64,000 nt of DNA from Escherichia coli (GTDB lineage Bacteria > Pseudomonadota > Gammaproteobacteria > Enterobacterales > Enterobacteriaceae): the NCBI RefSeq assembly GCF_016026235.1, contig NZ_CP065613.1, one strand, 5' to 3'. This document shows positions 18,209 to 64,000 of this stretch, piece after piece. The notes beneath the pieces were generated by a model. That model was not told the DNA's origin and ran no database searches. It saw only the letters and a program-made list of their open reading frames with translations. The position numbers and the translations under genes were made by a program. The stretch's first letter is position 1. The number at the start of each line of letters is the position of its first letter.

Positions 18209-18300
18209 TGCTTTTTATACTAAGTTGGCATTATAAAAAAGCATTGCTTATCAATTTGTTGCAACGAACAGGTCATTATCAGTCAAAATAAAATCATTAT
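18209..18300. other. attL: lambda-type core plus phage P' arm
   Basis: GCTTTTTATACTAA core followed by GTTGGCATTATAAAAAAGCATTGCTTATCAATTTGTTGCAACGAACAGGTCA... with Int arm-type site CAGTCAAAAT. Confidence 0.8.
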
Positions 18301-19367
18301 TTGATTTCAATTTTGTCCCACTCCCTGCCTCTGTCATCACGATACTGTGATGCCATGGTGTCCGACTTGTGCCCGAGAAGATGTTGAGCAAACTTATCGC
18401 TTATCTGCTTCTCATAGAGTCTTGCAGACAAACTGCGCAACTCGTGAAAGGTAGGTGGATCCCCTTCGAAGGAAAGACCTGATGCTTTTCGTGCGCGCAT
18501 AAAATACCTTGATACTGTGCCGGATGAAAGCGGTTCACGACGAGTAGATGCAATTATGGTTTCTCCGCCAAGAATCTCTTTGCATTTATCAAGTGTTTCC
18601 TTCATTGATATCCCGAGAGCATCAACATGCAATGTTGTAGGGATGGCAATTTTTACGCCTGTTTTGCTTTGCTCGACATAAAGATATCCATCTACGATAT
18701 CAGACCACTTCATTTCGCATAAATCACCAACTCGTTGCCCGGTAACAACAGCCAGTTCCATTGCAAGTCTGAGCCAACATGGTGATGATTCTGCTGCTTG
18801 ATAAATTTTCAGGTATTCGTCAGCCGTAAGTCTTGATCTCCTTACCTCTGATTTTGCTGCGCGAGTGGCAGCGACCGGGTTTGTTGTTATATGGCCTTCA
18901 GCTATTGCCTCTCGGAATGCATCGCTCAGTGTTGATCTGATTAACTTGGCTGATGCCGCCTTGCCCTCGTCTATGTATCCATTGAGCATTGCCGCAATTT
19001 CTTTTGTGGTGATGTCTTCAAGTGGAGCATCAGGCAGCCCCCTCCTTATTGCTTTAATTTTGCTCATGTAATTTATGAGTGTCTTCTGCTTGATTCCTCT
19101 GCTGGCGAGGATTTTTTCGTAGCGATCAAGCCATGAATGTAACGTAACAGAATTATCACTGTTGATTCTCGCTGTCAGAGGCTTGTGTTTGTGTCCTGAA
19201 AATAACTCAATGTTGGCCTGTATAGCTTCAGTGATTGCGATTCGCCTGTCTCGGCCTAATCCAAACTCTTTACCCGTCCTTGGGTCCCTGTAGCAGTAAT
19301 ATCCATTGTTTCTTATATAAAGGTTAGGGGGTAAATCCCGGCGCTCATGACTTCGCCTTCTTCCCAT
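18297..19367 (-). CDS. int: Integrase (tyrosine recombinase), lambda Int type
   Basis: 356 aa starting MGRRRSHERRDLPPNLYIRNNGYYCYRDPRTGKEFGLGRDRR..., recognised as lambda Int. Confidence 0.95.
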   Translation of the reverse strand: MGRRRSHERRDLPPNLYIRNNGYYCYRDPRTGKEFGLGRDRRIAITEAIQANIELFSGHKHKPLTARINSDNSVTLHSWLDRYEKILASRGIKQKTLINYMSKIKAIRRGLPDAPLEDITTKEIAAMLNGYIDEGKAASAKLIRSTLSDAFREAIAEGHITTNPVAATRAAKSEVRRSRLTADEYLKIYQAAESSPCWLRLAMELAVVTGQRVGDLCEMKWSDIVDGYLYVEQSKTGVKIAIPTTLHVDALGISMKETLDKCKEILGGETIIASTRREPLSSGTVSRYFMRARKASGLSFEGDPPTFHELRSLSARLYEKQISDKFAQHLLGHKSDTMASQYRDDRGREWDKIEIK

Positions 19368-19563
19368 TTCTGATCCTCTTCAAAAGGCTACCTGTTACTG
19401 GTCGATTTAAGTCAACCTTTACCGCTGATTCGTGGAACAAATACTCTCTTCCATCCTTAACCGGAGGAGGGAATATCCTGCACTCGCGTACCCATCGACG
19501 AACTGTTTCAAGGCTCCTTGGGCGTCGCTGGCGTGCGTTCCACTCCTGAAGTGTCAAGTACAT
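19345..19563 (-). CDS. xis: Excisionase
   Basis: 72 aa MYLTLQEWNARQRRPRSLETVRRWVRE..., lambda Xis; overlaps the int start. Confidence 0.9.
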   Translation of the reverse strand: MYLTLQEWNARQRRPRSLETVRRWVRECRIFPPPVKDGREYLFHESAVKVDLNRPVTGSLLKRIRNGKKAKS

Positions 19564-19647
19564 CGCAAAGTCTCCGCAATTACTCGCAAGGGAGCGAGTA
19601 TTGGTTTATTTTCTCCAACAAAAAAGGAGCCGAAGCTCCTTTGATGA

Positions 19648-20271
19648 TTAAAATTCGAATTGTCTCGCCCGAAGGCTTTTCAGCATTGGTTTTGCCCGTT
19701 CGAAAAGGGCGCTTGCTTGGTCAAGTCGTGTCGCCTCCCTTAGCAGTACATCTCTGTTTTTCGTCACCGTGTAAAAAGTTTCAAACGCGATGTCATACAG
19801 CTTGCTCGTGTATGATGAGTTCAGTTCCTTCAATATCGGGTACAGACGTTTGCAGATGTCCTGCGCATTCTCCATCTGTACCTGCATATAGCAAAGGAGG
19901 ATGATTTCTTCGTCTGTGAATTGCTGCGCTGGTTGCATGCTGCGAAGTTTCTTTTCGCACTCGATGAAGTATCGGCGTATCTGGCGGCCTTTTTCGTTAC
20001 GCTCGACCATCGCCGTTTCTTTGGCTGTATCGAGGGTGAGGTGATAGTCTTTGCTACGGCGATCGCCTCCACGTCCTTTGATCCCCCTGTTTTGGTGAAC
20101 CAAAATGTAATCGACATCAACGGCAAAGCCGTATTCTGTTATGCGATTTTTAATCCATGTAGAGAAGTCACGACGTACTTCCAAAAATTCGTGTAAATCA
20201 CGGGCATTAACGAGAAGAGTTGTTTCGTTGGATATAGTGCCGTTGAATACGGGGATGAGTTGACTGGTCAT
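19648..20271 (-). CDS. AntA/AntB-type antirepressor-like protein
   Basis: 207 aa; LLVNARDLHEFLEV...DFSTWIK motif typical of the AntA domain. Confidence 0.45.
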   Translation of the reverse strand: MTSQLIPVFNGTISNETTLLVNARDLHEFLEVRRDFSTWIKNRITEYGFAVDVDYILVHQNRGIKGRGGDRRSKDYHLTLDTAKETAMVERNEKGRQIRRYFIECEKKLRSMQPAQQFTDEEIILLCYMQVQMENAQDICKRLYPILKELNSSYTSKLYDIAFETFYTVTKNRDVLLREATRLDQASALFERAKPMLKSLRARQFEF

Positions 20272-20592
20272 TTTTATGTCCTTTGCATTTGTTCAGATAG
20301 CCCTGTGTTCAGCAGGGCGGTCAGGTACTTGAACACCGTGCAAAGTCGGCCCGTATCCTTAACCTTTCGGCTGTTTTTCGGTATACGCGCTACCCGACCA
20401 TATCTGAAAAATGGACATAAAAAATCCGCATGACTGACGGGTGCGGTTTCCGCTTTGCAAGGTGTGTTCAGCACCATGAAGCGGAATATAGCCCCGTTAA
20501 TGCGGTGTTGTCAAATCATGTAGGCCTTATCTTGCTGTAAGCCGCGCCATTCGGGCTTTTCCCCACATTTGGGGAAAACTATCTTGTCAAAA

Positions 20593-21375
20593 TCATGCAG
20601 CCTTTCGCCCTCCTTCGATGAGTTCCTCTATTTTGTGCACTCCAGCCTCGTTGTACCGAAATGTTTCAACCTGCTTGTCATTGTGCGCCGATTTGTCGAT
20701 GAACCACTTCCCGTACTTTTCTGTTTTGAGCATGTAGGTGTTGGCTATGCGTCCTACCTTGTTGGCTGAAATACCGTAGCGCTGGCCGACTTCCGTAGCA
20801 GAGTAGTAGTGCTCTGAGATAGCTGGCAGAGGTACAACATCGCGACCAACAATCGGGTTGAACACTCCAGCTACTGCTGCCTGCTTTGATTCTGAGGACA
20901 GATTCGGGAACATATTCACCAGTCGATCCGCCACGTTCAAAGCTATTTCCATGGTTCGCGCACGGTCTAGGCTACTTTCTGGTTGCGGTACTGGTTGAGG
21001 ATGGTTGGCAACCTTTTCGCGCTGATTGAAGTAGCCGTCCTCCAGTTTTTCGAACACGTCCCATGCCTGATCCGTTTCGAGCATCTTCGCGTGACGGGCG
21101 GCTCCGCGCTCTGTCCAGAGGATGAGGTGGCGTGCATTTGGGGCAATTTTCACAAAGTAGTTTAAAGCTACTTTGTGTTTTAGCGCGCGCAGCTCGTCAC
21201 CAACGACCTTGTAGAAGTGTACCCCCTCAACAAAGCGCGACTTGTTTTCATGATGGTTTTGCCGGATGCGCACAACATCCGTTCCGTACAACTGCGCCAA
21301 TAGTTCGCTGGTGATGACGTTGGTTTGTTTGTAGGTGATTGGTGAAAGTGTTTCAACAGAAATTTGAGCATTCAT
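20593..21375 (-). CDS. Phage antirepressor (ORF6N-domain protein)
   Basis: 260 aa; N-terminal region paralogous to the ORF at 36834-37520. Confidence 0.55.
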   Translation of the reverse strand: MNAQISVETLSPITYKQTNVITSELLAQLYGTDVVRIRQNHHENKSRFVEGVHFYKVVGDELRALKHKVALNYFVKIAPNARHLILWTERGAARHAKMLETDQAWDVFEKLEDGYFNQREKVANHPQPVPQPESSLDRARTMEIALNVADRLVNMFPNLSSESKQAAVAGVFNPIVGRDVVPLPAISEHYYSATEVGQRYGISANKVGRIANTYMLKTEKYGKWFIDKSAHNDKQVETFRYNEAGVHKIEELIEGGRKAA

Positions 21376-21499
21376 AGCGTCCTCACATTGGCTTTTGCAT
21401 TGAAGAAAGCTTGACGGTGAACTCGCCGTAACGAGTTCAGATAAAAGAAATCCCCGCGAGTGCGAGGATTGTTATTTACCTTTGACGGCAAGTTGCAGG

Positions 21500-22030
21500 T
21501 TAGCCACGGTTAACCTCCTGCGGCGGTTCTGGTAGCTGCATCCAGTGGGTTACCTCTTTGAGATACAGGTCTTCGCCATCACCGTCATCCCAAGTGGGAT
21601 TGCCATCATTAAACCAGTCGCCATATACGCCGACCTGAGTGTTGGGGATGTTTGGTGGGTAGTTGTTTTTAAAGTCAGCTGCTAACACATAGCATTGTCG
21701 CTCTCCCATTTCTGGCATTCGCTCACTACAGCTTATCCAGGCATCCGGAGTTACCGGCACTGGCTGGGCGGTATAAAGCGGTGTTATATCTGCCCGAAAA
21801 TTACATGCTTTATGCAGCCGCACCCACCGTTCGACTTCTGCTTTGTCAGAATACATACCAGTGAACGTGTTATATTCACGGTCAATTTGCGTGAAGGTTA
21901 CCTTCCACGCCACCGGCTCTGCTGTCAGCGATGCCAGAGCAATTTCATAAGCACGGCGTTCAACATTGTCTCGCACATCCAAACTGCTGATACGCTCTTT
22001 GATTTCTTTAATCAGTTCTTTGTCGTTCAC
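21500..22030 (-). CDS. DUF551-like phage protein
   Basis: 176 aa with the characteristic C-terminal VTHWMQLPEPP motif. Confidence 0.5.
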   Translation of the reverse strand: MNDKELIKEIKERISSLDVRDNVERRAYEIALASLTAEPVAWKVTFTQIDREYNTFTGMYSDKAEVERWVRLHKACNFRADITPLYTAQPVPVTPDAWISCSERMPEMGERQCYVLAADFKNNYPPNIPNTQVGVYGDWFNDGNPTWDDGDGEDLYLKEVTHWMQLPEPPQEVNRG

Positions 22031-22102
22031 TTATGCCTCCGATTCCCGGATGTCACCCAAATCAACGCTACAATGCCAACCAGTGCAACGAGCGCAAAAC
22101 TA

Positions 22103-22606
22103 TCAAGCATCTCCAACCTCTTTAACGGTAACTGTCTGTGCCTCCAGTTCTGCTATGCGCTTTTCTGAGGCTTCAAGTAACGCCTGCTTATCGCGTAGCG
22201 CTTCTTCCAGTTCAGCAACATGGCATTCACTATCAATAAGGTTGTTCTCTGCTGCTTCCAGCTCAACACGCAACTTCCCTACCGTTAGCGCAATTTCCTC
22301 GTTCTCCTGATCGCGGCTTTTGATGTATTGCAGGTTTCTTTCCCGTTCATCCAGTAGTGCCAGCGCAACATTTGGATTAAAAGCAGCAATAAATTCAGCG
22401 TTTGCATAAGCCTGAACATCTGTTTCAACCAGGCAGTTAACATGACATTCCGCAATCACACCACCGGGTTCTCCTTTCCATTTTTGACAAACAAAAACTC
22501 CTGTTATATTCCCATGCTGATTGCCCGATGTATGCCCTACGATGTAGCTCCCTTTCGTTGCCTTTTCTGCCGCATCACGCAGTGCCTGATAATTAATTTC
22601 GCTCAC
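22103..22606 (-). CDS. Ead/Ea22-like protein
   Basis: 167 aa; conserved N-terminal domain and coiled-coil C-terminus; position matches lambda ea22. Confidence 0.5.
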   Translation of the reverse strand: MSEINYQALRDAAEKATKGSYIVGHTSGNQHGNITGVFVCQKWKGEPGGVIAECHVNCLVETDVQAYANAEFIAAFNPNVALALLDERERNLQYIKSRDQENEEIALTVGKLRVELEAAENNLIDSECHVAELEEALRDKQALLEASEKRIAELEAQTVTVKEVGDA

Positions 22607-22728
22607 TTCGAACCTCTCTGTTTACTGATAAGCTCCAGATCTGCATTAAGCGCAGCAAAAATCTCTGGTGGTGTGCGCCAGCTGTCGCGATGTTCGGCAG
22701 GAGTATTGCTTCCGGTGAAATCAGTCAT
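22603..22728 (-). pseudogene. Putative remnant of a phage adenine methyltransferase N-terminus
   Basis: 41-codon [36 protein letters not shown]... resembling the Dam-type N-terminus, then stop. Confidence 0.3.
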
Positions 22729-22883
22729 ACAGCCCCCCGTTTATTATTTATCTCCTCAGCCAGCCGCTGTGCTTTCAGTGGATTTCTGATAACAGAAAGG
22801 CCGGGAAATACCCAGCCTCGCTTTGTAACGGAGTAGATGAAAGTGATCGCACCTACCCGGATATTATCGCGAGGATGCTTCAT
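22725..22883 (-). CDS. Small phage protein (lambda orf60a position)
   Basis: 52-aa ORF; start overlaps the exo stop (ATGA), stop overlaps the next start. Confidence 0.3.
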
Positions 22884-34967: not shown

Positions 34968-34998
34968 AGGCCTGCTGGTAATCGCAGGCCTTTTTATT
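34968..34998 (+). terminator. Rho-independent terminator after the primase-helicase
   Basis: Stem AGGCCTGC/GCAGGCCT followed by TTTTTATTT. Confidence 0.5.
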
Positions 34999-35012
34999 TG
35001 GGGGAGAGGGAA

Positions 35013-35871: not shown

Positions 35872-35914
35872 CAATGGTGCTCGACAAGCCCCGCCGTTCA
35901 GGGCGGGGAAATTG

Positions 35915-43476: not shown

Positions 43477-43525
43477 CGCTTCAATGGGAAATTGTTGTCG
43501 CCATTGTTCGATTAACGCGTATTTT

Positions 43526-47610: not shown

Positions 47611-47819
47611 ACCAGAATGATATTGAAGCCATGATCCATCGTTATATCAATGCGGAAATGGCAGTGCTGGACGGAAAGTCCATTACTTTTAATGGTCAGC
47701 AGATGACCATGGAAAACTTATCCGAGATCCGACAGGGGCGGCAGGAGTGGGAACGTCGCCTTGCGACTCTGGCTGCGCGGCGACGGGGGACGCCGGGCTA
47801 TAAACTGGCGAGGTTCTGA
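47601..47819 (+). CDS. Head-tail joining protein W-like
   Basis: 72 aa from ATG 47601 with GGAGG upstream; overlaps the terminase stop. Confidence 0.65.
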   Translation: MVVNQNDIEAMIHRYINAEMAVLDGKSITFNGQQMTMENLSEIRQGRQEWERRLATLAARRRGTPGYKLARF

Positions 47820-49324: not shown

Positions 49325-49337
49325 TTCCTGGTTCAGG

Positions 49338-51329: not shown

Positions 51330-51353
51330 ACGTCGCAGATAACAACTCTGATG

Positions 51354-51372
51354 GCCCGTAAGGGCTTTTTTT
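51354..51372 (+). terminator. Rho-independent terminator after the capsid gene
   Basis: GCCCGTAAGGGC hairpin followed by TTTTTTT. Confidence 0.5.
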
Positions 51373-51415
51373 GTACCTGAAATCAGCCCCTGAACGGGGC
51401 TGTGCGGAGACAGTT

Positions 51416-51739
51416 ATGGCAAAGAATTTTGTAGAAGAAGGGAAAACGGTGGCGATTGTTGCCAGTGCAGCCATCAGCAGCGGAGATCTGGTGCAGGTGG
51501 GTGATGTTTTTGCGGTGGCGCTGACCGATATTCCACAGGGTGAAACAGGCGACGGCCTGACCGAAGGTGTGTTTATGCTGCCTAAGCTGAAAACGGATGA
51601 CATGAAAACGGGTAAGAAGGTTTTTCTGAAGTCCGGAAAAGTTCAGCTGACTAACAGCGGCTCTGATCCGCTGGTCGGGGTTGTCTGGGCAGATGCCGGA
51701 GCTGGTGCAGAAGAAGTGCCGGTAAAACTCAATGTCTGA
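51416..51739 (+). CDS. DUF2190-like small head protein
   Basis: 107 aa from ATG 51416; Gly/Val-rich. Confidence 0.45.
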   Translation: MAKNFVEEGKTVAIVASAAISSGDLVQVGDVFAVALTDIPQGETGDGLTEGVFMLPKLKTDDMKTGKKVFLKSGKVQLTNSGSDPLVGVVWADAGAGAEEVPVKLNV

Positions 51740-52007
51740 TCCCTTTTCCCGGCTGGCAGCGCGTATGGATGCGATCACGGTCAGAAAGATGGGAAAGATG
51801 GCCTCGATTAATGATGTTTATATGCCTGTGCTCCCGGGAGAAACTCTGGCAGAGCTGAACGCTCTGTCCGGACCGGCGGTCTCTCTGGTGGTGTTTTCTT
51901 CGGGATACCGCCCACGGCGCGGGGACCGCGTTGTTTATGACGGACAACAATGGACGGTCACACGGCATGAACGCTTTAACGGTAAACCAATGATCTTTAT
52001 TGAGTAA
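51732..52007 (+). CDS. Putative head completion / head-tail connector protein
   Basis: 91-aa ORF between head and tail modules. Confidence 0.35.
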   Translation: MSDPFSRLAARMDAITVRKMGKMASINDVYMPVLPGETLAELNALSGPAVSLVVFSSGYRPRRGDRVVYDGQQWTVTRHERFNGKPMIFIE

Positions 52008-52018
52008 AGAGGTGTGGG

Positions 52019-52603
52019 ATGAAGGGGCTTGAGAATGCCATCCGTAATCTGAACAGCCTCGATACCCGCATGGTGCCACAGGCCAGCGCATGGGCGGTAA
52101 ACCGTGTGGCGGCAAAGATTATTTCTGTCGCCACACGGCAGGTTGCGCAGAATACCGTTGCCGGGGATAACCAGGTGAAAGGTATTCCCCTGAAAACGGT
52201 CAGGGAGCGTGTCAGGCTGCTTAAAGCCAGCCCCTCAGGAAAAATGTATGCCCGCATGCGTGTTAACCGGGGTAACCTGCCCGCCATTAAGCTGGGTACC
52301 GCACAGGTCAGACTGGCCCGCTCCCGGCATGGCAGCAACTCACGTCATCGTGGCAGCGTACTGAAAGTGGGGAAATACCTTTTCCGGGATGCGTTTATTC
52401 AGCAACTGGCGAATGGTCGCTGGCATGTGATGCGGCGTATTGACGGCAAAAATCGTTACCCCATTGATGTGGTGAAAATCCCGCTGTCCGGACCGCTGAC
52501 ACAGGCATTTGAAGATGCCCGCGACCGCATCATTGCTGCGGAAATGCCGAAACAGCTGGGGTATGCACTGAAACAACAACTGAGGTTATGGCTGACCCGA
52601 TGA
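52019..52603 (+). CDS. Z: Minor tail protein Z
   Basis: 194 aa; resembles lambda gpZ (GRWHVMRRIDGKNRYPIDVVKIP). Confidence 0.8.
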   Translation: MKGLENAIRNLNSLDTRMVPQASAWAVNRVAAKIISVATRQVAQNTVAGDNQVKGIPLKTVRERVRLLKASPSGKMYARMRVNRGNLPAIKLGTAQVRLARSRHGSNSRHRGSVLKVGKYLFRDAFIQQLANGRWHVMRRIDGKNRYPIDVVKIPLSGPLTQAFEDARDRIIAAEMPKQLGYALKQQLRLWLTR

Positions 52604-53001
52604 ACCGACATACACAGATCCGCCAGGTCGTACTGGCACGCCTTCGGGAACAGTGTGGAGACAGCGCCACGTTTTTTGACGGGCTTCCGGCATTTGTTGA
52701 TGCGCAGGAACTGCCTGCCGTGGCGGTGTGGCTGAGTGATGCTCAGTACACCGGAAAAATGACGGATGAAGATGACTGGCAGGCTGTTCTGCATATTGCT
52801 GTCTTCATCCGGGCACAGGCACCGGATTCAGAGCTGGATATGTGGATGGAGAGCACCATTTTCCCGGCCCTGAATGATGTACCGGCACTTTCCGGACTCA
52901 TCGACACCATGAACCCACTCGGTTTTAACTATCAACGTGATAATGAGATGGCCACCTGGGCGATGGCGGAAATCACGTACCAGATCACGTACACGAATTA
53001 A
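52588..53001 (+). CDS. U: Tail terminator protein U
   Basis: 137 aa; resembles lambda gpU. Confidence 0.8.
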   Translation: MADPMNRHTQIRQVVLARLREQCGDSATFFDGLPAFVDAQELPAVAVWLSDAQYTGKMTDEDDWQAVLHIAVFIRAQAPDSELDMWMESTIFPALNDVPALSGLIDTMNPLGFNYQRDNEMATWAMAEITYQITYTN

Positions 53002-53011
53002 GGAGGTGGCA

Positions 53012-53752
53012 ATGACCACACCAAATCCACTGGCAAAAACGAAAGGTGCGGGAACGACGTTCTGGATGTACACCGGCAAGGGCGATGCGTTTGCGAACCC
53101 TTTGTCGGACACTGACTGGCTGCGTCTTGCGATGGTGAAGGATCTGCAACCTGGCGAAATGACCGCTGATGCAGAAGATGACACTTATCTCGATGATGAA
53201 GATGCAGACTGGAAAACGACAACCCAGGGGCAGAAATCCGTCGGTGATACTTTGGCGACGCTGGCCTGGCGTCCGGGTGACAGCGGGCAGAAAAAACTGG
53301 TTCAGTTGTTCGATTCCGGTGAAGTCTGCGCGTTTCGTATCAAATACCCCAACGGTACGGTTGATGTTTTCCGTGGCTGGCTGAGTTCACTGGGTAAAAC
53401 CATTACCTCAAAAGAGGTGATGACCCGTACTGTAAAAATCAGCGGTGTGGGGCGTCCGTATCTGGCAGAGGAGGGCGCTGAAACCGTGGGTGTTACCGGA
53501 CTGACGGTGGCACCGGCATCTGTCAGTGTCAAAGCGGGAGCAACCACCACACTGACCTTTACAGTAAAACCTGACGGGGCCAGTGACAAAGCGATCAGTG
53601 TGCATTCGTCAGATCCTCAGACTGCTTCGGTGACCCTGAGCGGGCTTGTGGCCACGGTGAAAGGCGTGAAGCAGGGCAGTGTCAGCATCGTGGGCATGAC
53701 CTCTGACGGAGAGTTTGTGGCAGTGGCTGCGGTGACCGTCAGCGCACCATAA
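53012..53752 (+). CDS. V: Major tail protein V (with C-terminal Ig-like domain)
   Basis: ATG 53012 with AGGAGGTGG upstream; 246 aa. Confidence 0.85.
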   Translation: MTTPNPLAKTKGAGTTFWMYTGKGDAFANPLSDTDWLRLAMVKDLQPGEMTADAEDDTYLDDEDADWKTTTQGQKSVGDTLATLAWRPGDSGQKKLVQLFDSGEVCAFRIKYPNGTVDVFRGWLSSLGKTITSKEVMTRTVKISGVGRPYLAEEGAETVGVTGLTVAPASVSVKAGATTTLTFTVKPDGASDKAISVHSSDPQTASVTLSGLVATVKGVKQGSVSIVGMTSDGEFVAVAAVTVSAP

Positions 53753-53792
53753 CAGGACGATACTCATCATTGCCCCGGTTATCCGGGGCTTT

Positions 53793-54197
53793 TTGCATCC
53801 GGAGAACATGATGTTTCTGAAACAGGATACGTTTAATTATGAAAAACAGTCCGTGGTGCTCAGTGAGCTGTCCGGGCTGCAGAGAATTGAATATCTGACG
53901 TTTGTTCAGCAGCGAACGGCAAAGTTTGATGCACAGGAGGGAGAACTGCCGGAGGCTGAACGACAGATTGCTTTTCTGCGTATGGGAATGGATATCAATG
54001 CCTGGCTGGTTTCCCGCTCACTGTGGAATGCTGAGCAGTCTCAGGATGTTGAGACGCTTTGCGCATCCATTATGACAACATGGTCGTATGATGCGCTGGG
54101 CGCGGGGGCGGAGAGGGTTCTGTCGCTGAGCGGTATGGGGACCATTGAGAATGCCGGGGATGATGATCATGAGGCGCTGACGCCGGAAAAGTCCTGA
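53793..54197 (+). CDS. G: Tail assembly chaperone G
   Basis: About 130 aa; MFLKQDTFNYEKQSVVLSELSGLQRIEYL resembles lambda gpG. Confidence 0.75.
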   Translation: MHPENMMFLKQDTFNYEKQSVVLSELSGLQRIEYLTFVQQRTAKFDAQEGELPEAERQIAFLRMGMDINAWLVSRSLWNAEQSQDVETLCASIMTTWSYDALGAGAERVLSLSGMGTIENAGDDDHEALTPEKS

Positions 54198-54205
54198 CGC
54201 GGGAA

Positions 54206-54535
54206 ATGCAGTTTGTCATGCGGCTTGCCCGGGAGTTCCGGCGGGCAGACTGGCGGCGGATGCTGTCGGAAATGTCGGCCACTGAGCTTGGTGAGTGGGG
54301 CGATTATTTCCGGATGCAGAGCTTCAGTGATGTGTGGATGGATGCGCAGTTTGCCTCGCTGAAGGCATTGATCGTGAGAATGGTGTCCGGCAGCAGCGAT
54401 GCTGCGGTGGCTGATTTCAGCCTTTTACCGGAAGAGAACGGGATACCGGAGCGAACGGACGAAGAACTGATGCATCTTGGGGAAGGTATTTCCGGAGGTG
54501 TGCGTTATGGACCAGATAGCCAACCTGGTCATTGA
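54206..54535 (+). CDS. T: T portion of the G-T tail assembly chaperone (-1 frameshift product)
   Basis: ORF in the -1 frame relative to G; G-frame stop preceded by CCGGAAAAG, a candidate slippery region. Confidence 0.55.
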   Translation: MQFVMRLAREFRRADWRRMLSEMSATELGEWGDYFRMQSFSDVWMDAQFASLKALIVRMVSGSSDAAVADFSLLPEENGIPERTDEELMHLGEGISGGVRYGPDSQPGH

Positions 54536-57462
54536 TTTGGGGATTGATGCGGCAGAGTTTAAAAATGAAATTCCCCGTATCAAAAACCTTCTGAATGGTG
54601 CAGCCAGCGATGCAGAACGGTCTTCTGCCCGTATGCAGCGTTTTATGGAGCGTCAGACTCAGGCCGCCCGGCAGACAACGCAGGCGGCTTCTTCGGCTGC
54701 AACAGCCGCATCCGTCCATGCGCAGACGGTGGAGAAGAACGCACAGGCTCATGAACGCATGGCCCGCGAGGTGGAGAAAACCCGCCAGCGCATGGAGGCG
54801 CTGAGCCAGAAAATGCGCGAGGAACAGGCGCAGGCCAGGGCACTGGCGGAGGCGCAGGATAAAGCGGCTGCCGCCTTTTATCGCCAGATTGACAGTGTGA
54901 AACAGGCCGGTGCGGGGCTTCAGGAATTACAGCGTATTCAGCAGCAGATCCGACAGGCCAGAAACAGTGGCGGGGTTGGTCAGCAGGATTATCTGGCGCT
55001 GATTTCGGAGATCACGGCGAAAACCCGTGCCCTGACGCAGGCAGAGGAACAGGCCACCCGGCAGAAAGCGGCGTTTATCCGCCAGCTTAAAGAGCAGGCA
55101 ACCCGCCAGAATCTGTCGTCTTCTGAGTTGCTTCGCGCCAGGGCGGCTCAGCTGGGGGTAAGCAGTGCTGCAGAAGTGTATATCCGCAAAATGGAGCGGG
55201 CAGGAAAAGCCACACATTCGCTGGGGCTGAAAAGTGCGGCAGCCCGGCGGGAGCTGGGGGTGTTAATCAGTCAGATGGCGCGCGGCAATTTTGGTGCGCT
55301 GAGGGGATCCGGGATAACGCTGGCTAACCGTGCCGGATGGACAGGCGCACTGATGTCGCCGAAAGGCATGATGACTGGCGGCGTTATTGGCGGACTTGTC
55401 GCGGCGGTCCTGGGTCTGGGTAAAGCCTGGCATGACGGCCGGAAGGAGGGCGAGGAATTTAACCGTCAGCTGGCGCTGACGGGACATTATGCCGGTGTCA
55501 CTGTCGGGCAGTGGGGCATTTCATGGAAACGATATTGGTATGGTGGCGAAAGCTGCCGCACAGATGGAGCGATCGGTTGGCCAGTCGGTCAGCGATACCA
55601 TAAATCAGTTTAAGCGGCTGAAGGATGATCCTGTAAATGCCGCGAAGGCGCTGGACAATGCGCTGCATTTTTGACTGCCACTCAGCTTGAGCAGATACGC
55701 GTCCTTGGGGAGCAGGGGCGGTCCAGTGATGCGGCCCGGATCGCCATGTCTGCGCTGGCAGAGGAAACCGGTAAACGCACATCTGATATTGATAATAATC
55801 TCAATGCGCTGGGTAGTACGCTGCAAACCTTGTCTGACTGGTGGAAGCAGTTCTGGGATGCGGCCATGAATATTGGTCGTGAAGACTCGCTGGATGCGCA
55901 GATTGATGCGTTACAGGAAAAAATTCAGCGCGCGAAAAAATATCCGTGGACAAACGCCTCCACACAGGTGGAGTACGATCAGCAGCGTCTTAACGATCTT
56001 CAGGAGAAAAAACGCCGGAAGGATTTGCAGGATGCAAAAGCGCAGGCAGAACGGAATTACCAGGAGCAACAGAAACGCCGGAATGCTGAAAATGCCGCGC
56101 TGAACCGGATGAATGAAACGGAAGCTGCACGACATCAGCGGGAAATTGCGCGTATTAATGCCATGCAGTACGCCGACCAGGCTGTCAGGGATGCGGCGAT
56201 ACAGCGTGAAAATGAACGTTACGAAAAAGCCATTAAGAAAAATACACGGGCAACCCGTAATGATGAGGCCACCCGGTTATTGCTGCAGTACAGTCAGCAG
56301 CAGGCACAGGTGGAAGGGCAGATTGCTGCTGCCAGACAGTCAGCAGGCATTGCCACTGAAAGGATGACTGAAGCGCATAAACAGCTTCTGGCCCTGCAGC
56401 AGCGCATCAGCGACCTGGGCGGGAAAAAGCTGACGGCAGATGAAAAGAGTGTGCTGGCCCGTAAGAATGAGCTGATTCAGGCGCTGACGCTGCTGGATGT
56501 GAAACAGCAGGAGCTGCAGAAACAGACAGCGCTTAACGACCTGAGAAAAAAACGGTTCAGCTGACCAGCCAGCTGGCAGACAAAGAACGTGCACTGCGTG
56601 AGCAGCACAATCTGGATATTGCCACTGCAGGTATGGGGGATAAGCAGCGGCAGCGCTACCAGGCACAGTTGCGCATCCGGCAGGAATACCGGCAACAGTT
56701 GCAACAGCTTGAGAATGACAGTCGCCAGAAAGGCACTTACGGGACGGAGGACTACCGGAGGGCTGAGGAGGTGCTGAAGGGGAGCCTGAAGCGACAACTG
56801 AATGAAAACAAACGCTACTGGCAGGAACTGGAAGTGGCGCAGGGCGACTGGAAAAACGGTGCCATGCGGGCGTTTCAGAATTTTACGGCGGATGCGGATA
56901 ATGCGGCGGGAACGGCAGAACAGATGTTTACAGTGGCATTCAGCAGTGCCGGTAATGCACTGGCGACATTCTGTACCACCGGTAAGCTGAATTTTAAATC
57001 CTTTACCTCTTCCCTGTTGTCAGATATGGCCAGAATTATGGCACAGATGGCCATGATGCAGGCGGTAAAGGGCGTCGGTTCTTTATTCGGCTTCACGACT
57101 AATGCTGATGGCGGTGTTTACCAGTCTGCTGATTTGAGTCGCTACAGTGGCACGGTGGTTAACCGTCCGACGTTTTTTGCTTTTGCAAAAGGCGCGGGTG
57201 TGATGGGGGAAGCGGGACCTGAAGCCATTCTGCCACTGCGTCGCGGTGCTGATGGTAAGCTGGGGGTGTGGCGGATACTGGTGGTTCAGGCATGGTGATG
57301 TTTGCCCCGCAGTACAACATTGAGATCAATAACGATGGCACGAACGGGCAGATAGGTCCGGCTGCCCTGAAGGTGGTTTATGACCTCGGGAAAAAAGCGG
57401 CCGCGGACTTTATGCAACAGCAGGCCCGTGATGGTGGCCGGTTAAGTGGAGCATACCGGTAA
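54507..57462 (+). pseudogene. H: Tail tape measure protein H, fragmented by about four frameshifts
   Basis: Tape-measure-like Ala/Gln-rich sequence distributed over five frames (ORFs 54477-55613, 55489-55674, 55671-56564, 56633-57298, 57268-57462); switches at G-run about 55505, T5 at 55672, A7 at 56555, G5 at 57280. Confidence 0.7.
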
Positions 57463-57791
57463 TGGAGACGTTTCACTGGAAAGTGCGCCCGGATATGAAT
57501 GTGGTATCAGAGCCGAAAGTGGTGACAGTGAAGCTGGGCGATGGTTATGAACAGCGTCGTGCGGCGGGACTGAATAACCAGTTGTCGACTTACAGCGTGA
57601 CGATACGTGTTCGTAAAGGTGAACACCCATCTTTAAAAGCCTTTCTGGAACGGCACGGTGGCGTCCGCGCATTTCAGTGGACGCCACCTTATGACTGGAA
57701 ACCGATCAGGGTGGTTTGTCGTAAATGGTCGGCAAGCGTGGGGGCGTTATGGGTGACTGTAACGGCCGATTTTGAACAGGTGGTGAACTGA
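57462..57791 (+). CDS. M: Minor tail protein M
   Basis: 109 aa; C-terminus ...FEQVVN as in lambda gpM. Confidence 0.85.
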   Translation: METFHWKVRPDMNVVSEPKVVTVKLGDGYEQRRAAGLNNQLSTYSVTIRVRKGEHPSLKAFLERHGGVRAFQWTPPYDWKPIRVVCRKWSASVGALWVTVTADFEQVVN

Positions 57792-58489
57792 TGCAGGATA
57801 TCCGGCAGGAAACACTGAATGAATGCACCCGTGCGGAGCAGTCAGTCCGGGTGGAGCTCTGGGAAATCGATCTGACAGAGGTCGGTGGTGAGCGTTATTT
57901 TTTCTGTAATGAGCAGAACGAAAAAGGTGAGCCGGTCACCTGGCAGGGGCGGCAGTATCAGGCATACCCCATTCAGGGGTCGGGGTTTGAACTGAACGGC
58001 AGGGGCTGTGCTGCCCGTCCGACACTGACGGTCTCTAACCTGCACGGCATGGTCACCGGTATGGCGGAAGATCTGCAGAGTCTGGTCGGCGGAACGGTGG
58101 TCAGGCGTAAGGTTTACGCCCGTTTTCTGGATGCGGTGAACTTCGTCAACGGAAACAGCGACGCCGATCCGGAACAGGAGGTGATCAGCCGCTGGCGCAT
58201 CGAGCAGTGCAGCGAACTGAGCGCGGTCAGTGCCTCTTTTGTGCTGGCCACACCAACGGAGACGGATGGCGCGGTTTTCCCGGGGCGTATCATGCTGGCG
58301 AATACCTGTATGTGGACTTACCGTTCTGATGAGTGTGGTTACACGGGCAGGGCAGTGGCTGACGAGTTCGACAAACCAACGACGGATATCCGGAAGGACA
58401 AATGCAGCAAGTGTATGCGCGGGTGTGAGTTGCGCAACAATACCGGTAATTTCGGCGGTTTCCTTTCCATCAATAAACTTTCTCAGTAA
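57791..58489 (+). CDS. L: Minor tail protein L
   Basis: 232 aa, lambda gpL-like. Confidence 0.85.
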   Translation: MQDIRQETLNECTRAEQSVRVELWEIDLTEVGGERYFFCNEQNEKGEPVTWQGRQYQAYPIQGSGFELNGRGCAARPTLTVSNLHGMVTGMAEDLQSLVGGTVVRRKVYARFLDAVNFVNGNSDADPEQEVISRWRIEQCSELSAVSASFVLATPTETDGAVFPGRIMLANTCMWTYRSDECGYTGRAVADEFDKPTTDIRKDKCSKCMRGCELRNNTGNFGGFLSINKLSQ

Positions 58490-58493
58490 ATCC

Positions 58494-59237
58494 ATGACAC
58501 AGACAGAATCAGCGATTCTGGCGCACGCCCGGCGATGTGCGCCAGCGGAGTCGTGTGGCTTCGTGGTGAGAACGCCGGAGGGAGACAGGTATCTTCCCAG
58601 CGAGAATATCTCCGGTGAGCCGGAGGAACGGTTCCGGATGGCTCCGGAGGACTGGCTGCGGGCACAAATGCTGGGTGAGATTGTGGCGCTGGTCCACAGT
58701 CATCCCGGTGGTCTGCCCTGGCTGAGTGAGGCTGACCGGCGGCTGCAGGTGCAGAGTGATTTGCCGTGGTGGCTGGTCTGCCGGGGTGAGATTCATAAAT
58801 TCCGCTGTGTGCCGCATCTCACCGGGCGGCGCTTTGAGCACGGGGTGACGGACTGTTACACGCTGTTCCGGGATGCTTATCATCTGGCGGGGATTGAGAT
58901 GCCGGATTTTCATCGCGGGGATGACTGGTGGCGTAACGGTCAGAATCTCTATCTTGACAATATGGAGGTGACGGGTTTTTACCGTGTCGCACTGACAGAG
59001 GCGCAGCCGGGCGATGTGCTGCTGTGCTGTTTTGGTTCATCGGTGCCGAATCATGCCGCCATTTACTGCGGTGACGGCGGGCTGCTGCACCATATTCCTG
59101 AACAACTGAGCAAACGAGAGAGGTACACCGACAAATGGCAGCGACGCACACACTCCCTCTGGCGTCACCGGGCATGGCGCGCATCTGCCTTTACGGGGAT
59201 TTACAACGATTTGGTCGCCGCATCGACCTTCGTGTGA
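58494..59237 (+). CDS. K: Tail assembly protein K (JAB/MPN plus NlpC/P60 domains)
   Basis: 247 aa from ATG 58494; HSHP motif and Cys-His peptidase motif. Confidence 0.85.
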   Translation: MTQTESAILAHARRCAPAESCGFVVRTPEGDRYLPSENISGEPEERFRMAPEDWLRAQMLGEIVALVHSHPGGLPWLSEADRRLQVQSDLPWWLVCRGEIHKFRCVPHLTGRRFEHGVTDCYTLFRDAYHLAGIEMPDFHRGDDWWRNGQNLYLDNMEVTGFYRVALTEAQPGDVLLCCFGSSVPNHAAIYCGDGGLLHHIPEQLSKRERYTDKWQRRTHSLWRHRAWRASAFTGIYNDLVAASTFV

Positions 59238-59776
59238 AAACGGGGGCTGAAGCCATCCGGGCACTGGCCACACAGCTCCCGGCGTTTCGTCAGAAACTGA
59301 GTGACGGCTGGTATCAGGTGCGCATTGCCGGGCGTGATGCAGGTGAAACCGAATTGTCTGCCCGTCTTAATGAGCCGCTGGCAAATGGTGCAGTGATCCA
59401 CATAGTACCGCGTCTGGTGGGAGCTAAAAGTGGCGGTGTGTTTCAGGCGGTGCTGGGGGCGGCTGTTATGGCGGTTGCTATATGGATGCCGGGGGTAGGA
59501 ATTATGGCGAGTAATCTGCTGTTTTCTCTCGGTGCCAGTATGACGCTTGGCGGTGTTGCACAGATGCTGGCACCGAAAGCCAGAACTCCCCGTACACAGA
59601 CAACGGATAACGGTAAGCAGAACACGTATTTCTCGTCACTGGATAACATGGTTGCCCAGGGCAATGTTCTGCCCGTTCTGTACGGTGAAATGCGCGTGGG
59701 GTCACGTGTGGTTTCTCAGGAGATCAGCACGGCAGACGAAGGGGATGGTGGTCAGGTTGTGGTGATTGGTCGCTGA
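59135..59776 (+). CDS. I: Tail assembly protein I
   Basis: 213 aa, lambda gpI-like. Confidence 0.8.
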   Translation: MAATHTLPLASPGMARICLYGDLQRFGRRIDLRVKTGAEAIRALATQLPAFRQKLSDGWYQVRIAGRDAGETELSARLNEPLANGAVIHIVPRLVGAKSGGVFQAVLGAAVMAVAIWMPGVGIMASNLLFSLGASMTLGGVAQMLAPKARTPRTQTTDNGKQNTYFSSLDNMVAQGNVLPVLYGEMRVGSRVVSQEISTADEGDGGQVVVIGR

Positions 59777-59836
59777 TGCAAAATGTTTTATGTGAAACCG
59801 CCTGCGGGCGGTTTTGTCGTTTATGGAGCGTGAGGA

Positions 59837-62800
59837 ATGGGTAAAGGCAGCAGTAAGGGGCATACCCCGCGCGAAGCGAAGGACAACCTGAAATCCACGC
59901 AGTTGCTGAGTGTGATTGATGCCATCAGCGAAGGGCCGGTTGACGGTCCGGTGGATGGATTAAAAAGCGTGCTGCTGAACGGTACGCCGGTCCTGGACAG
60001 CGAGGGGAAGACAAACTTTTCCGGTGTTACGGTGGTGTTCCGCGCCGGCGAGCAGGAGCAGACACCGCCGGAGGGGTTTGAATCTTCCGGCTCCGAGACG
60101 GTGCTGGGTACGGAAGTGAAATACGACACGCCGATCACCCGGACCATCACGTCGGCAAACATTGATCGTCTGCGCCTGACCTTCGGTGTGCAGGCACTGG
60201 TGGAAACCACCTCAAAGGGGGACCGGAATCCGTCGGAAGTCCGCCTGCTGGTTCAGATACAGCGTAACGGTGGCTGGGTGACGGAAAAAGACATCACCAT
60301 TAAGGGCAAAACCACTTCGCAGTATCTGGCCTCGGTGGTGGTGGGTAACCTGCCGCCGCGCCCGTTTAATATCCGGATGCGCAGGATGACACCGGACAGC
60401 ACCACAGACCAGCTGCAGAACAAAACGCTCTGGTCGTCGTACACCGAAATCATCGATGTGAAACAGTGCTACCCGAACACGGCGCTGGTCGGCGTGCAGG
60501 TGGATTCAGAGCAGTTCGGTAACCAGCAGGTGAGTCGCAATTATCATCTTCGCGGGCGCATTCTGCAGGTGCCGTCGAACTATAACCCGCAGACGCGGCA
60601 ATACAGCGGTATCTGGGACGGAACGTTTAAGCCAGCATACAGCAACAATATGGCCTGGTGTCTGTGGGATATGCTGACCCACCCGCGCTACGGCATGGGG
60701 AAACGTCTTGGTGCGGCGGATGTGGATAAATGGGCGCTGTATGTCATCGGCCAGAATTGCGATCAGTCGGTGCCGGACGGCTTTGGCGGCACGGAGCCGC
60801 GCATCACCTGTAATGCGTACCTGACCACACAGCGCAAGGCGTGGGATGTGCTCAGTGATTTCTGCTCGGCGATGCGCTGTATGCCGGTATGGAACGGGCA
60901 GACGCTGACGTTCGTGCAGGACCGACCGTCGGATAAGGTGTGGACCTATAACCGCAGTAATGTGGTGATGCCGGATGATGGCGCGCCGTTCCGCTACAGC
61001 TTCAGCGCCCTGAAGGACCGCCATAATGCCGTTGAGGTGAACTGGATTGACCCGGATAACGGCTGGGAGACGGCGACAGAGCTTGTTGAAGATACGCAGG
61101 CCATTGCCCGTTACGGTCGTAATGTCACGAAGATGGATGCCTTTGGCTGTACCAGTCGGGGGCAGGCACACCGCGCCGGGCTGTGGCTGATTAAAACGGA
61201 GCTGCTGGAAACGCAGACCGTGGACTTCAGCGTGGGTGCTGAAGGGCTTCGCCATGTACCGGGCGATGTCATTGAAATCTGCGATGATGACTATGCCGGT
61301 ATCAGCACCGGCGGGCGCGTGCTGGCGGTAAACAGCCAGACCCGGACGCTGACGCTCGACCGTGAAATCACGCTGCCATCTTCCGGCACCACGCTGATAA
61401 GCCTGGTTGACGGGCAGGGGAGTCCGGTCAGCGTGGAGGTTCAGTCCGTCACCGACGGCGTGAAGGTGAAAGTGAGCCGGGTTCCTGACGGCGTTGCAGA
61501 ATACAGCGTGTGGGGGCTGAAGCTGCCGACGCTGCGCCAGCGCCTGTTCCGCTGCGTGAGTATCCGTGAGAACGACGACGGCACGTATGCCATCACCGCC
61601 GTGCAGCATGTGCCGGAAAAAGAGGCCATCGTGGATAACGGGGCACACTTTGACGGTGACCGGCGCGGCACGGTGAATGGTGTCACGCCGCCAGCGGTGC
61701 AGCATCTGACCGCCGAAGTCACCGCAGACAGCGGGGAATATCAGGTGCTGGCGCGATGGGACACGCCGAAGGTGGTGAAGGGAGTGAGCTTCCTGCTTCG
61801 CCTGACCGTGGCAGCGGACGACGGCAGTGAGCGGCTGGTCAGCACAGCCCGGACGACGGAAACCACATACCGCTTCAGGCAGCTGGCGCTGGGGAATTAC
61901 AGTCTGACAGTCCGGGTGGTAAATGCCCGGGGGCAGCAGGGCGATCCGGCGTCGGTATCGTTCCGGATTGCGGCACCGGCAGCGCCTGTCACTATTGAAC
62001 TGATACCGGGGTATTTTCAGATAACGGCGGTCCCGAAACTGGCTGTATATGACCCGACGGTGCAGTTTGAGTTCTGGTTTTCGGAAAAGCGGATTGCGGA
62101 TATCAGGCAGGTTGAAACCAGCGCCCGCTATCTTGGCACGGCGCTGTACTGGATAGCCGCCAGTATCAATATCAGGCCGGGCCATGATTATTATTTTTAC
62201 GTTCGCAGTGTGAACACCGTTGGCAAATCGGCATTTGTGGAGGCCGTCGGTCGGGCGAGCGATGATGCGGAAGGTTATCTGAGTTTTTATAAAGGGTTGA
62301 TCAATAAAACGCATCTCGGCAAGGAGTTGTGGACGCAGATTGATAACGGTCAGCTTGCGCCGGACCTGACTGAAATCAGGACGTCCATTACGAATGTCAG
62401 CAATGAAATCACGCAAACCGTCAATAAAAAACTGGAAAATCAGAGTGCTGCAATCCAGCAGATACAGAAAGTTCAGGTTGATACAAATAATAACCTGAAC
62501 AGCATGTGGGCTGTGAAGCTGCAACAGATGAAGGACGGACGCCTTTATATTGCGGGTATCGGTGCCGGTATTGAGAATACGCCAGCAGGAATGCAGAGTC
62601 AGGTGCTGCTGGCGGCAGACAGGATTGCGATGATTAATCCTGCGAATGGCAACACAAAGCCGATGTTTGTTGGTCAGGGCGATCAGATATTCATGAACGA
62701 CGTGTTCCTGAAACGCCTGACGGCTCCGACCATTACCAGCGGCGGTAATCCTCCGGCATTTTCCCTGACACCTGGCGGACGGCTGACGGCGAAAAATGCC

Positions 62801-63310
62801 GATATCAGCGGTAACGTGAACTCCGGGACGCTCAACAACGTCACGATTAATAAGAACTGTCGGGTTCTGGGAAAATTGTCCGCGAACCAGATTGAAGGCG
62901 ATCTCGTTAAAACAGTGGGCAAACCTTTCCCACGGGACTCCCGTGCACCGGAGAGGTGGCCATCAGGGACCATTACCGTCAGGGTTTATGACGATCAGCC
63001 GTTTGATCGGCAAATTGTTATTCCCGCGGTGGCGTTTCGCGGTGCTAAACATGAGCGGAAGAATAACAATATTTATTCGTCATGCCGCCTGATAGTGAAG
63101 AAAAACGGTGCTGAAATTTATAACCGAACGACCCTGGATAATACGCTGATATATACGGGTGTTATTGATATGCCTGCCGGTCACGGTCACATGACGCTGG
63201 AGTTTTCTGTATCGGCATGGCTGGTAAATGGCTGGTATCCCACAGCAAGTATCAGCGATTTGCTGGTTGTTGTGATGAAGAAATCCACAGCAGGTATCAG
63301 TATCAGCTGA
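59837..63310 (+). CDS. J: Tail tip / host specificity protein J
   Basis: 1157 aa; size and conserved N-terminal region of lambda gpJ. Confidence 0.9.
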
Positions 63311-63377
63311 ATTTTATAACCCAGATACGGGCACCAGAAATGGTGCCTTTTTTATTGCAGAAAAGCGAGAGGTAATT

Positions 63378-63977
63378 ATGCGTAAACTTTATGCTGCCAT
63401 TTTGTCCGCAGCCATCTGTCTGGCTGTATCCGGTGCGCCTGCATGGGCGTCTGAACATCAGTCCACGCTGAGCGCGGGGTATCTTCATGCCTCGACGAAC
63501 GCTCCCGGCAGTGATGATCTGAACGGGATTAACGTGAAATACCGTTATGAGTTTACGGACACGCTGGGGCTGGTGACGTCATTCAGCTATGCCAACGCTG
63601 AAGATGAGCAAAAAACGCATTACAGCGATACCTGCTGGCATGAGGATTCCGTGCGTAACCGCTGGTTCAGCGTGATGGCGGGGCCGTCTGTGCGCGTGAA
63701 TGAATGGTTCAGCGCGTATGCGATGGCGGGCGTGGCTTACAGCCGTGTGTCGACCTTCTCCGGGGATTATCTCCGCGTAACTGACAACAAGGGGAAAACG
63801 CACGATGTGCTGACCGGAAGTGATGACGGTCGCCACAGCAACACGTCTCTGGCGTGGGGAGCTGGCGTGCAGTTTAACCCGACCGAATCCGTGGCCGTTG
63901 ACCTTGCTTATGAAGGTTCCGGCAGTGGCGACTGGCGCACTGACGGTTTCATCGTGGGTGTCGGTTATAAGTTCTGA
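63378..63977 (+). CDS. lom: Outer membrane protein Lom (Ail/Lom family)
   Basis: 199 aa with signal peptide and C-terminal ...GVGYKF beta-barrel motif. Confidence 0.9.
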   Translation: MRKLYAAILSAAICLAVSGAPAWASEHQSTLSAGYLHASTNAPGSDDLNGINVKYRYEFTDTLGLVTSFSYANAEDEQKTHYSDTCWHEDSVRNRWFSVMAGPSVRVNEWFSAYAMAGVAYSRVSTFSGDYLRVTDNKGKTHDVLTGSDDGRHSNTSLAWGAGVQFNPTESVAVDLAYEGSGSGDWRTDGFIVGVGYKF

Positions 63978-64000
63978 TTAGCCAGGTAACACAGTGTTAT

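Follow-up and report, generated by a model that had tools for sequence, protein, structure and literature searches.

A mosaic lambdoid prophage at attλ in an Escherichia coli chromosome, probably defective and probably a hybrid formed by recombination between lysis genes

How did a prophage that begins like phage lambda come to carry the late genes of a different kind of phage, and can it still work as a phage? The question is raised by a 64,000-nucleotide stretch of Escherichia coli DNA from contig NZ_CP065613.1 (the window), in which a lambdoid prophage spans positions 18209 to 64000, at attλ beside ybhC, and extends beyond the window end. We consider it likely that this is one defective mosaic prophage lying between ybhC and, beyond the window, ybhB-bioA, and that it became a hybrid by recombination between lysis genes. 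The original prediction, made from the sequence alone, had described lambda-identical modules joined to modules of other origins. The mosaicism held up, but the assignments of the tail, the endolysin, the O-like initiator, and the lambda-specific recombination genes did not. What the comparisons show directly are the homologies and their coordinates, the insertions and deletions, and the interval of the crossover.

The left end of the element was placed exactly by the prediction. The attL core (B-O-P'), GCTTTTTATACTAA, is at 18210 to 18223, and homology to lambda in the alignment begins at 18212. The end coordinate of 64000 is the window edge, just past lom. On the bacterial side, ybhC (16880 to 18163, minus strand) is followed by AAGCCTGCTTTTTATACTAAGTTGGCATTA, which reads as the bacterial attB arm joined to the lambda core and P' arm. 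The T-run of the core has five bases, compared with six in lambda and in the assemblies FDAARGOS_943 and CP065611. Either the core is truly mutated, which could hamper excision, or the difference is a sequencing error in a base run. The left flank (1 to 18400) matches the E. coli pgl-ybhH-ybhI-ybhJ-ybhC region and is 99.9% identical to FDAARGOS_943. The latter is filed as E. coli, but it has ipaH genes and IS600. Therefore, the host chromosome is like that of Shigella or enteroinvasive E. coli (EIEC).

To map the modules, we aligned the window to six reference phages: lambda (NC_001416), 933W, Stx2a_F451 (F451), SH2026Stx1, mEp460, and DLP12. Lambdoid phages are classically defined as those that recombine with lambda to give viable hybrids. 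In the open reading frame (ORF) map and homology table, the gene order is canonically lambdoid: int-xis, recombination, N, cI/cro, cII, replication, nin, Q, lysis, and packaging/head/tail. The segment map against the reference phages shows high-identity blocks to other lambdoid phages with sharp borders. No module is identical to lambda, contrary to the prediction, and only about 10.2 of the 45.8 kb (about 22%) reaches at least 85% nucleotide identity to it. The species criterion for Lambdavirus lambda is about 95% nucleotide identity over the genome, and with so little of its length at even 85% the element falls outside that species. As predicted, no single described phage is colinear with the element. 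In the collection searched, coverage of the early half by any one phage stops at 47%, and none of 5,426 complete E. coli genomes reaches 80% of that half. The late half alone is common, with 1,736 genomes covering at least 80% of it. Module borders coincide with accessory loci, again as had been proposed. These loci are the antirepressors, an Nmad5 gene, ORFs in the rex position, a HigBA-like pair, the tRNAs, a DUF1327 gene, and a KilA-N gene.

The evidence for a hybrid comes from two other assemblies. CP065611 is colinear with 18078 to 40188 at 99.88% identity, apart from an ISEc20 insertion in the window, and it remains 99.9% identical on to 42026. After that point it continues with lambda-like head genes, including Nu1, W, and a 530-amino-acid portal gene. 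JAALAC010000003 has a different early region and equals the window over 40477 to 52327 save for one mismatch at 42236. Around the lysis genes, all mismatches to CP065611 are at or beyond 42027, and all mismatches to JAALAC010000003 are at or before 40476, except the one at 42236. Between these limits (40477 to 42026, 1.55 kb), over a stretch that reaches from the last part of the holin gene to the first part of Rz, the window and both parental types are identical. Therefore, the exchange is placed within this interval.

The same 1.55-kb lysis repeat is present in several prophages, including at least two of one related genome, and other kinds of join have to be weighed. FDAARGOS_943 has a homologous late block (98 to 99% identity) about 1.7 Mb from its attλ prophage, beside btsS/yehS, and this block ends with ipaH. 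An inversion or translocation via shared lysis cassettes might have joined an attλ early half to a late half from such a place (e.g., near yehS/btsS), in which case the window would hold two half-prophages. This would agree with a crossover inside a repeat that one genome carries several times, with the distant late block of FDAARGOS_943, and with the fact that the early half leads into lambda-like head genes in both FDAARGOS_943 and CP065611. However, UGFA01000002 has a late block with no mismatches to the window over 9.7 kb, and the gene order there is lom, a tail fiber gene, DUF4376, ipaH, ybhB, and bioA-bioD. There, an identical late block with ipaH directly adjoins ybhB-bioA, which is the layout predicted for a one-piece hybrid at attλ and therefore argues against an inversion or a mis-join. 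The reciprocal product of an inversion would instead put lambda-like late genes beside ybhB. We think that two half-prophages are improbable.

An assembly mis-join across the lysis repeat is very unlikely. It would be eased by the identical copies of the repeat that one related genome has in two or more of its prophages, and related draft assemblies do break within these late regions. Even so, the window is a continuous 64-kb stretch with flanks that match independent assemblies within 0.1%, and UGFA01000002 provides an independent case of such a late block beside an attλ flank. This leaves a single hybrid prophage at attλ as our preferred reading, and some points weigh against it. The right end is beyond the window, and we infer the integrity of attR from another assembly, in a contig that starts within the tape-measure gene. 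Related genomes have near-identical late regions in at least three chromosomal positions, and identity alone cannot tell which copy is involved. Some of the single-base deletions in base runs, in the tape-measure gene and the att core, could be sequencing errors. Finally, operator function, origin function, the direction of recombination, and the loss of viability or inducibility are all inferred from the DNA. As a side observation, the prophage lineage of the window is already present in other public assemblies.

Four lesions that the prediction had not listed bear on whether the prophage still works. ISEc20 interrupts the initiator gene together with its iterons, IS600 interrupts the KilA-N gene, the tape-measure gene has lost its reading frame, and Rz1 contains a premature stop. 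The tape-measure pseudogene (54507 to 57462, plus strand) has lost 83 bp near 55512, with a 7-bp repeat at the edges of the deletion, in comparison with mEp460 and FDAARGOS_943. It also has three further single-base deletions, all in base runs. The runs of doubtful length are at 55645, 56545, and 57266, besides the one at 18215 in the att core. Three other assemblies align across the site of the 83-bp deletion in one segment, so this deletion is probably genuine and shared. We have also considered that this might be a still-functional temperate phage in which the lesions are tolerated or are sequencing errors. Its int, xis, cI, cro, N, Q, Red, terminase, portal, and capsid fusion genes are all full length, and the KilA-N gene hit by IS600 is likely dispensable. 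However, the 83-bp deletion shifts the frame of the tape-measure gene at a site over which those three assemblies align unbroken. ISEc20 splits both the initiator gene and the iteron array, and the same insertion is in a second assembly. A functional phage is therefore barely credible. The element is probably defective and would not make virions by itself. Because cI is intact, it probably still provides immunity.

The left arm begins with the lambda-type genes int (18297 to 19367, minus strand, 356 amino acids) and xis (19345 to 19563, minus strand, 72 amino acids). Their identity to lambda is 99% at the protein level and 98.3% at the DNA level (18212 to 19590), which bears out their assignment to lambda. 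They are followed by an accessory "b-region" (19648 to 22606, minus strand) that is 82 to 90% identical to Stx2a_F451 or unmatched among the reference phages. Here, all on the minus strand, are genes for an AntA/P22AR antirepressor (19648 to 20271), a 67-amino-acid ORF product, an ORF6N antirepressor (20593 to 21375), a DUF551 protein (21500 to 22030), and an Ea22-like protein (22103 to 22606). Rfam places an sRNA-Xcc1-type RNA at 20311 to 20399, upstream of the antA gene.

The Red and early-left block, orf60a-exo-bet-gam-kil-cIII (22726 to 25013, minus strand), includes exo (22880 to 23560), bet (23557 to 24342), and gam (24348 to 24644). Rfam also finds the cIII thermoregulator (RF01804, 88.5 bits) at 24951 to 25009. 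In DNA comparisons this block is 97.2% identical to lambda and 97.6% identical to 933W. Therefore, exo, bet, and kil are lambda-like, as had been claimed, but the recombination block is not lambda specific. Between cIII and N there is an accessory gene (25102 to 25725, minus strand) for a 207-amino-acid protein (phrog_1965) with an Nmad5 domain. Among the reference phages it matches only SH2026Stx1 (96% over 25106 to 25735), and PF18757 was found on identical copies of the gene in two related assemblies.

N and its nutL/PL leader occupy 25787 to 26411 on the minus strand. N itself (25787 to 26170, 127 amino acids) is 99% identical to 933W N over its 127 residues, and N with its leader is 98.1% identical in DNA to 933W 9014 to 9689, the stretch that holds the annotated nutL. 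Its designation as 933W-type was thus correct, and it extends to the nutL and nutR flanks. On the far side of the immunity cassette (26412 to 29107), the nutR region and cII span 29108 to 29558 on the plus strand, with cII of the 933W/F451 type at 29259 to 29558. Its match to the 933W/F451 type spans 29108 to 29516 and is 93.6% identical to 933W 13076 to 13484, and the cII protein is 98% identical to that of F451.

The immunity cassette is bounded exactly, on both sides, by these 933W-type nut regions, and it is a classical immunity-region swap. It is 94.9% identical to SH2026Stx1 along its full length. The cI gene (28077 to 28784) encodes 235 amino acids with HTH_3 and S24 peptidase domains, and an exact-protein look-up found this allele in many assemblies. 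The cro gene starts at 28875 or 28896 and ends at 29120, and its product matches YdaS/P22_Cro-like helix-turn-helix families. The prediction that the operators have the form ATAAC-N4-GTTAT was confirmed. With up to one mismatch allowed, there are 11 such sites in the window, compared with 1.5 expected by chance, and 5 of the 11 are in the immunity region. Three are 24 to 25 bp apart between cI and cro (OR3, OR2, and OR1 at 28797, 28821, and 28846), and two are 25 bp apart beside the 933W-type PL leader (OL sites at 26422 and 26447). The repressor is predicted to act at these sites. An 86-amino-acid ORF and a 177-amino-acid ORF (phrog_2602) occupy the rex position (26657 to 27508), and a DUF3024 gene (27698 to 28039) is beside cI. 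The DUF3024 protein matches the PADLOC defense candidate PDC-S43 (E = 7e-42). Among ten accessory proteins searched, PADLOC returned only this match and weak PDC-S05 matches on the ORF6N antirepressor. NCBIfam searches of the small accessory ORFs gave no match.

Replication had been predicted to use a primase-helicase rather than O and P. No window protein matched lambda O or P in a comparison with the lambda proteins. P is indeed replaced, but there is an analogue of O, although it is disrupted. This O-like initiator gene (29721 to 32025, plus strand) matches phrog_4617, "replication initiation protein" (E = 2e-55), and has an HTH_36 domain in intact alleles, which encode 258 to 265 amino acids in CP065611, a further related assembly, and FDAARGOS_943. 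Together, the initiator and primase-helicase genes (29555 to 34937) are 97 to 98% identical in DNA to F451. The intact gene of CP065611 contains four 21-bp repeats, GGGGTGGGGCAGGAGCTGCCC, each with a palindrome. Their layout resembles that of the lambda origin inside O, and on that ground the repeats are putative origin iterons and the gene is predicted to contain the origin. The window gene retains only two of these repeats (around 30011 to 30039 and 31487 to 31505).

The initiator gene is split by ISEc20, a 1.45-kb member of the IS110 family (30040 to 31486, minus strand) with a transposase gene at 30063 to 31259 (Pfam DEDD_Tnp_IS110). The insertion is 99.9% identical to annotated ISEc20 copies. 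It lies inside the iteron array, exactly between TAGGGGGTG and GGGCAGG. Because the same GGGGGTG^GGG flanks are found at two unrelated ISEc20 copies, the insertion point suggests a sequence-specific target. A minor corollary is that ISEc20 may have struck the phage origin through an iteron variant that matched this target.

The primase-helicase gene (32032 to 34938, plus strand) encodes 968 amino acids, and the protein is 99% identical to that of Stx2a_F451. A Toprim domain (residues 209 to 296) precedes an AAA_25 P-loop helicase domain (residues 789 to 849), with Hint and LAGLIDADG domains between them. The latter belong to a 341-amino-acid intein (residues 373 to 713; window 33148 to 34170) that begins directly after a Walker-A-like GVNGHGKA. 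The junctions are GVNGHGKA/CPLNEP...YVATHN/TEVV, with Cys373 at the first and His-Asn/Thr at 712 to 714, and the intein is predicted to splice. It is of the Shiga toxin (Stx) phage kind found in phi24B P. The same intein has been described in the phi24B P protein, and a Shigella flexneri orthologue was noted (PMC3430580).

The nin region (34998 to 39159) is a patchwork that includes a lambda-like ninE (95%) and 933W-like pieces. Its genes include a phiTE_015-like gene, a divergent allele of ninB, ninE, a Rha fragment, RusA, and NinH. A pair resembling the HigB toxin and its helix-turn-helix antitoxin HigA (35848 to 36527, minus strand) is between ninE and an antirepressor module. None of the six reference phages has a match to this pair, whose products are called as proteins of 92 and 101 amino acids in CP065611. 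The antirepressor module has a P22AR/ORF6N antirepressor gene (36834 to 37520), with ant at 37845 to 38615. Just upstream of the former, Rfam identifies IsrK (36598 to 36671) and C4 antisense RNA (36698 to 36782). Together with the sRNA-Xcc1-type RNA in the left arm, these RNAs upstream of antirepressor genes suggest that the prophage has two RNA-controlled antirepressor modules.

Q and PR' were correctly predicted to be of the lambda type. Q (39156 to 39779, plus strand, 207 amino acids) is 99% identical to lambda Q at the protein level, and Q with PR' (39146 to 39864) is 96.1% identical in DNA to lambda 43875 to 44594. PR' (plus strand) has its -35 element at 39822 and its -10 element at 39845. 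It is lambda-like in both elements, in the Q-binding region, and over the first 10 or so transcribed bases, where the similarity ends. Stx phages carry tRNAs and stx at the position held here by tRNA-Asn(GTT) and tRNA-Thr(TGT) (40040 to 40195, plus strand). Only these two tRNAs are between PR' and the holin gene, and nothing matches 933W 21462 to 22702; stx is absent.

The lysis cassette (40312 to 42351, plus strand) had been called phage-21-type. This was correct for the holin and the general design, but not for the endolysin. The holin gene (40312 to 40527) encodes a 71-amino-acid protein of the S21 family with an MKSM dual start, which matches PF04971 (P21 holin S, E = 3e-35) and is 87% identical to DLP12 EssD. 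Between it and the endolysin gene are a DUF1327 gene (40532 to 41062) and a 65-amino-acid ORF. The GH24 endolysin (41384 to 41917) belongs to the same broad family (PF00959) as the R21 type, but it shares only 32% identity with the R21-like RrrD, as against 91% with 933W R and 95% with mEp460 R. Its hydrophobic N terminus suggests a signal-anchor-release sequence. Rz (41914 to 42351) is 55 to 57% identical to RzpD and lambda Rz. The embedded Rz1, which encodes the outer membrane spanin, is at about 42113 to 42238. At 42236, a C in the closest relative is replaced here by T, which creates a premature TAG in Rz1 and a Pro-to-Leu substitution in Rz. The cassette thus shares with phage 21 and DLP12 a class II S21 holin, an endolysin with a hydrophobic N terminus, and an Rz gene with an embedded Rz1. 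It differs from them in the endolysin itself, in the inserted DUF1327 gene and 65-amino-acid ORF, and in the premature Rz1 stop.

Downstream of the lysis genes, a KilA-N domain gene (42554 to 44341, plus strand; 173 amino acids when intact) is split by IS600, an IS3 family element (42615 to 43877, minus strand) that is 99.8% identical to annotated IS600 copies. We considered IS600 as the join between two halves. This is ruled out by its 3-bp GGA target duplication, by the KilA-N frame that runs on across it (MNIVPLNYKGEPIRFNTDGW/INATDIAKRF...), and by the uninterrupted 173-amino-acid gene in JAALAC010000003.

The packaging, head, and tail-shaft genes (44405 to 57462, plus strand) form a block of the mEp460/cdtI/Gifsy-2 type. 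On the plus strand, it contains genes for TerS (44990 to 45508), TerL (45508 to 47610), a 70-amino-acid protein, the portal (47819 to 49324), a ClpP protease-scaffold-capsid fusion (about 49269 to 51329), and the decoration protein (51416 to 51739), followed by a Gifsy-2-family gene and then Z, U, V, G, T, and the tape-measure gene. The tail-tip genes M, L, K, I, and J run from 57462 onward (J at 59837 to 63310), followed by lom (63378 to 63977), again on the plus strand. The alignment to mEp460 is colinear, with 92% DNA identity over 44990 to 55511 and 90% over 55506 to 62333 (range for the block, 90 to 94%). The predicted protease-capsid fusion was upheld by NF045540, which scored 983.6 bits against a cut-off of 475 and aligned over model positions 2 to 651 of 652, and by the Pfam domains CLP_protease and Phage_capsid_4. 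Gifsy-2 is reported to have such a fused ClpP-like protease and capsid, according to a citation in PMC12315714. An HK97-type head is unsupported because the capsid gene is of the fused Gifsy-2/mEp460 type. The lambda-type cos sequence, GGGCGGCGNNCT, had no match in the 64-kb window, and cos was not located.

The tail genes had been attributed to lambda. This is true only of L, K, I, and J, which are 89%, 70%, 81%, and 82% identical to their lambda counterparts at the protein level. By the same measure, Z, U, V, and M are 49%, 53%, 56%, and 56% identical, and G, T, and H fall at about 27 to 38% (G, 30%; T, 38%). TerL is 24% identical and Lom is 46% identical. DNA identity to lambda in the late region reaches 88% only over 57324 to 62333, a stretch that starts at the end of H and takes in most of J, and is 66% over Z-U-V. 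The proposed junction between a lambda tail and a foreign head is absent, because the head and tail genes together make up a single colinear block of the mEp460/cdtI/Gifsy-2 type. Toward its C terminus (62334 to 63292), J is unmatched, or only 74 to 76% matched, in comparison with lambda and mEp460. Its divergence suggests that receptor specificity probably differs from that of both phages. A second segment with a tail fiber C terminus, DUF4376, and ipaH is at 5133 to 7539, about 10 kb to the left of attλ. It shares 99.2% identity with the segment 3' of lom in related prophages and is a remnant of another ipaH prophage.

These features can be assembled into a history. A lambda-type Int would have integrated the element at attλ in a Shigella- or EIEC-like chromosome. 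Its circuit is the standard lambdoid one built from alleles of mixed origin. A LexA-like cI and cro would act on ATAAC-N4-GTTAT sites, and a 933W-type N would act with matching nutL and nutR. Replication would be run by an initiator with iterons in its own gene and by the intein-bearing primase-helicase. Lambda Q would act at lambda PR', and a pinholin-type lysis cassette and the Gifsy-2/mEp460-type morphogenesis block would complete the circuit. Most likely, homologous recombination in the 1.55-kb lysis stretch joined the attλ early half to a late half of the ipaH-carrying type. The lesions (ISEc20, the tape-measure frameshift, the Rz1 truncation, and IS600) would have made the element defective.

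A more tentative proposal, although a realistic one, is that a recent recombination between co-resident prophages moved a complete morphogenesis block and its ipaH cargo onto the attλ prophage. If so, shared lysis cassettes would be portable exchange points through which type III effector genes are reshuffled among chromosomal sites in Shigella. Mapping the last exchange to the lysis repeat bears on how ipaH late blocks spread between sites, and mis-assembly or rearrangement is likely to occur at this repeat and in the near-identical late regions. Otherwise, the analysis serves mainly as a base-level module map. The case exemplifies textbook lambdoid mosaicism and the decay of a prophage in a Shigella-like genome rich in IS elements, and it has little importance beyond annotation.

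Comparison with known phages places the element among ordinary mosaic lambdoid prophages, in which every module has close published or database relatives. With lambda it shares the attachment site, int/xis, Red-kil-cIII, Q and PR', the gene order, and the tail-tip genes L to J. However, N, immunity, replication, most nin genes, lysis, packaging, the head, and the tail shaft are other alleles or families. With the 933W-like Stx phages (933W, Stx2a_F451, phi24B, Min27, and SH2026Stx1) it shares N with nutL and nutR, cII, the primase-helicase and its O-like partner, the immunity cassette, and the Red block. It differs from them in having lambda's integrase and Q, the latter not of the 933W type, and in lacking stx and the short-tail morphogenesis genes; the alignment has no similarity to 933W beyond 933W position 28661. 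With mEp460, cdtI, Ayreon, PhiR55_1, and the Salmonella phage Gifsy-2 it shares the colinear terminase-to-lom block. The early regions of those phages are unrelated to that of the window, which also differs in its frameshifted tape-measure gene and in the C-terminal end of J. Other close relatives are the attλ prophages of the Shigella-like CP065611 and FDAARGOS_943. They share the site, and over the stretch that runs from ybhC to the lysis genes (18078 to 42026) CP065611 matches the window at 99.9%, but lambda-like Nu1, A, W, and B head genes follow and there is no ISEc20 insertion. The FDAARGOS_943 prophage differs further, with lambda-type immunity that includes rexAB and with another recombination module.

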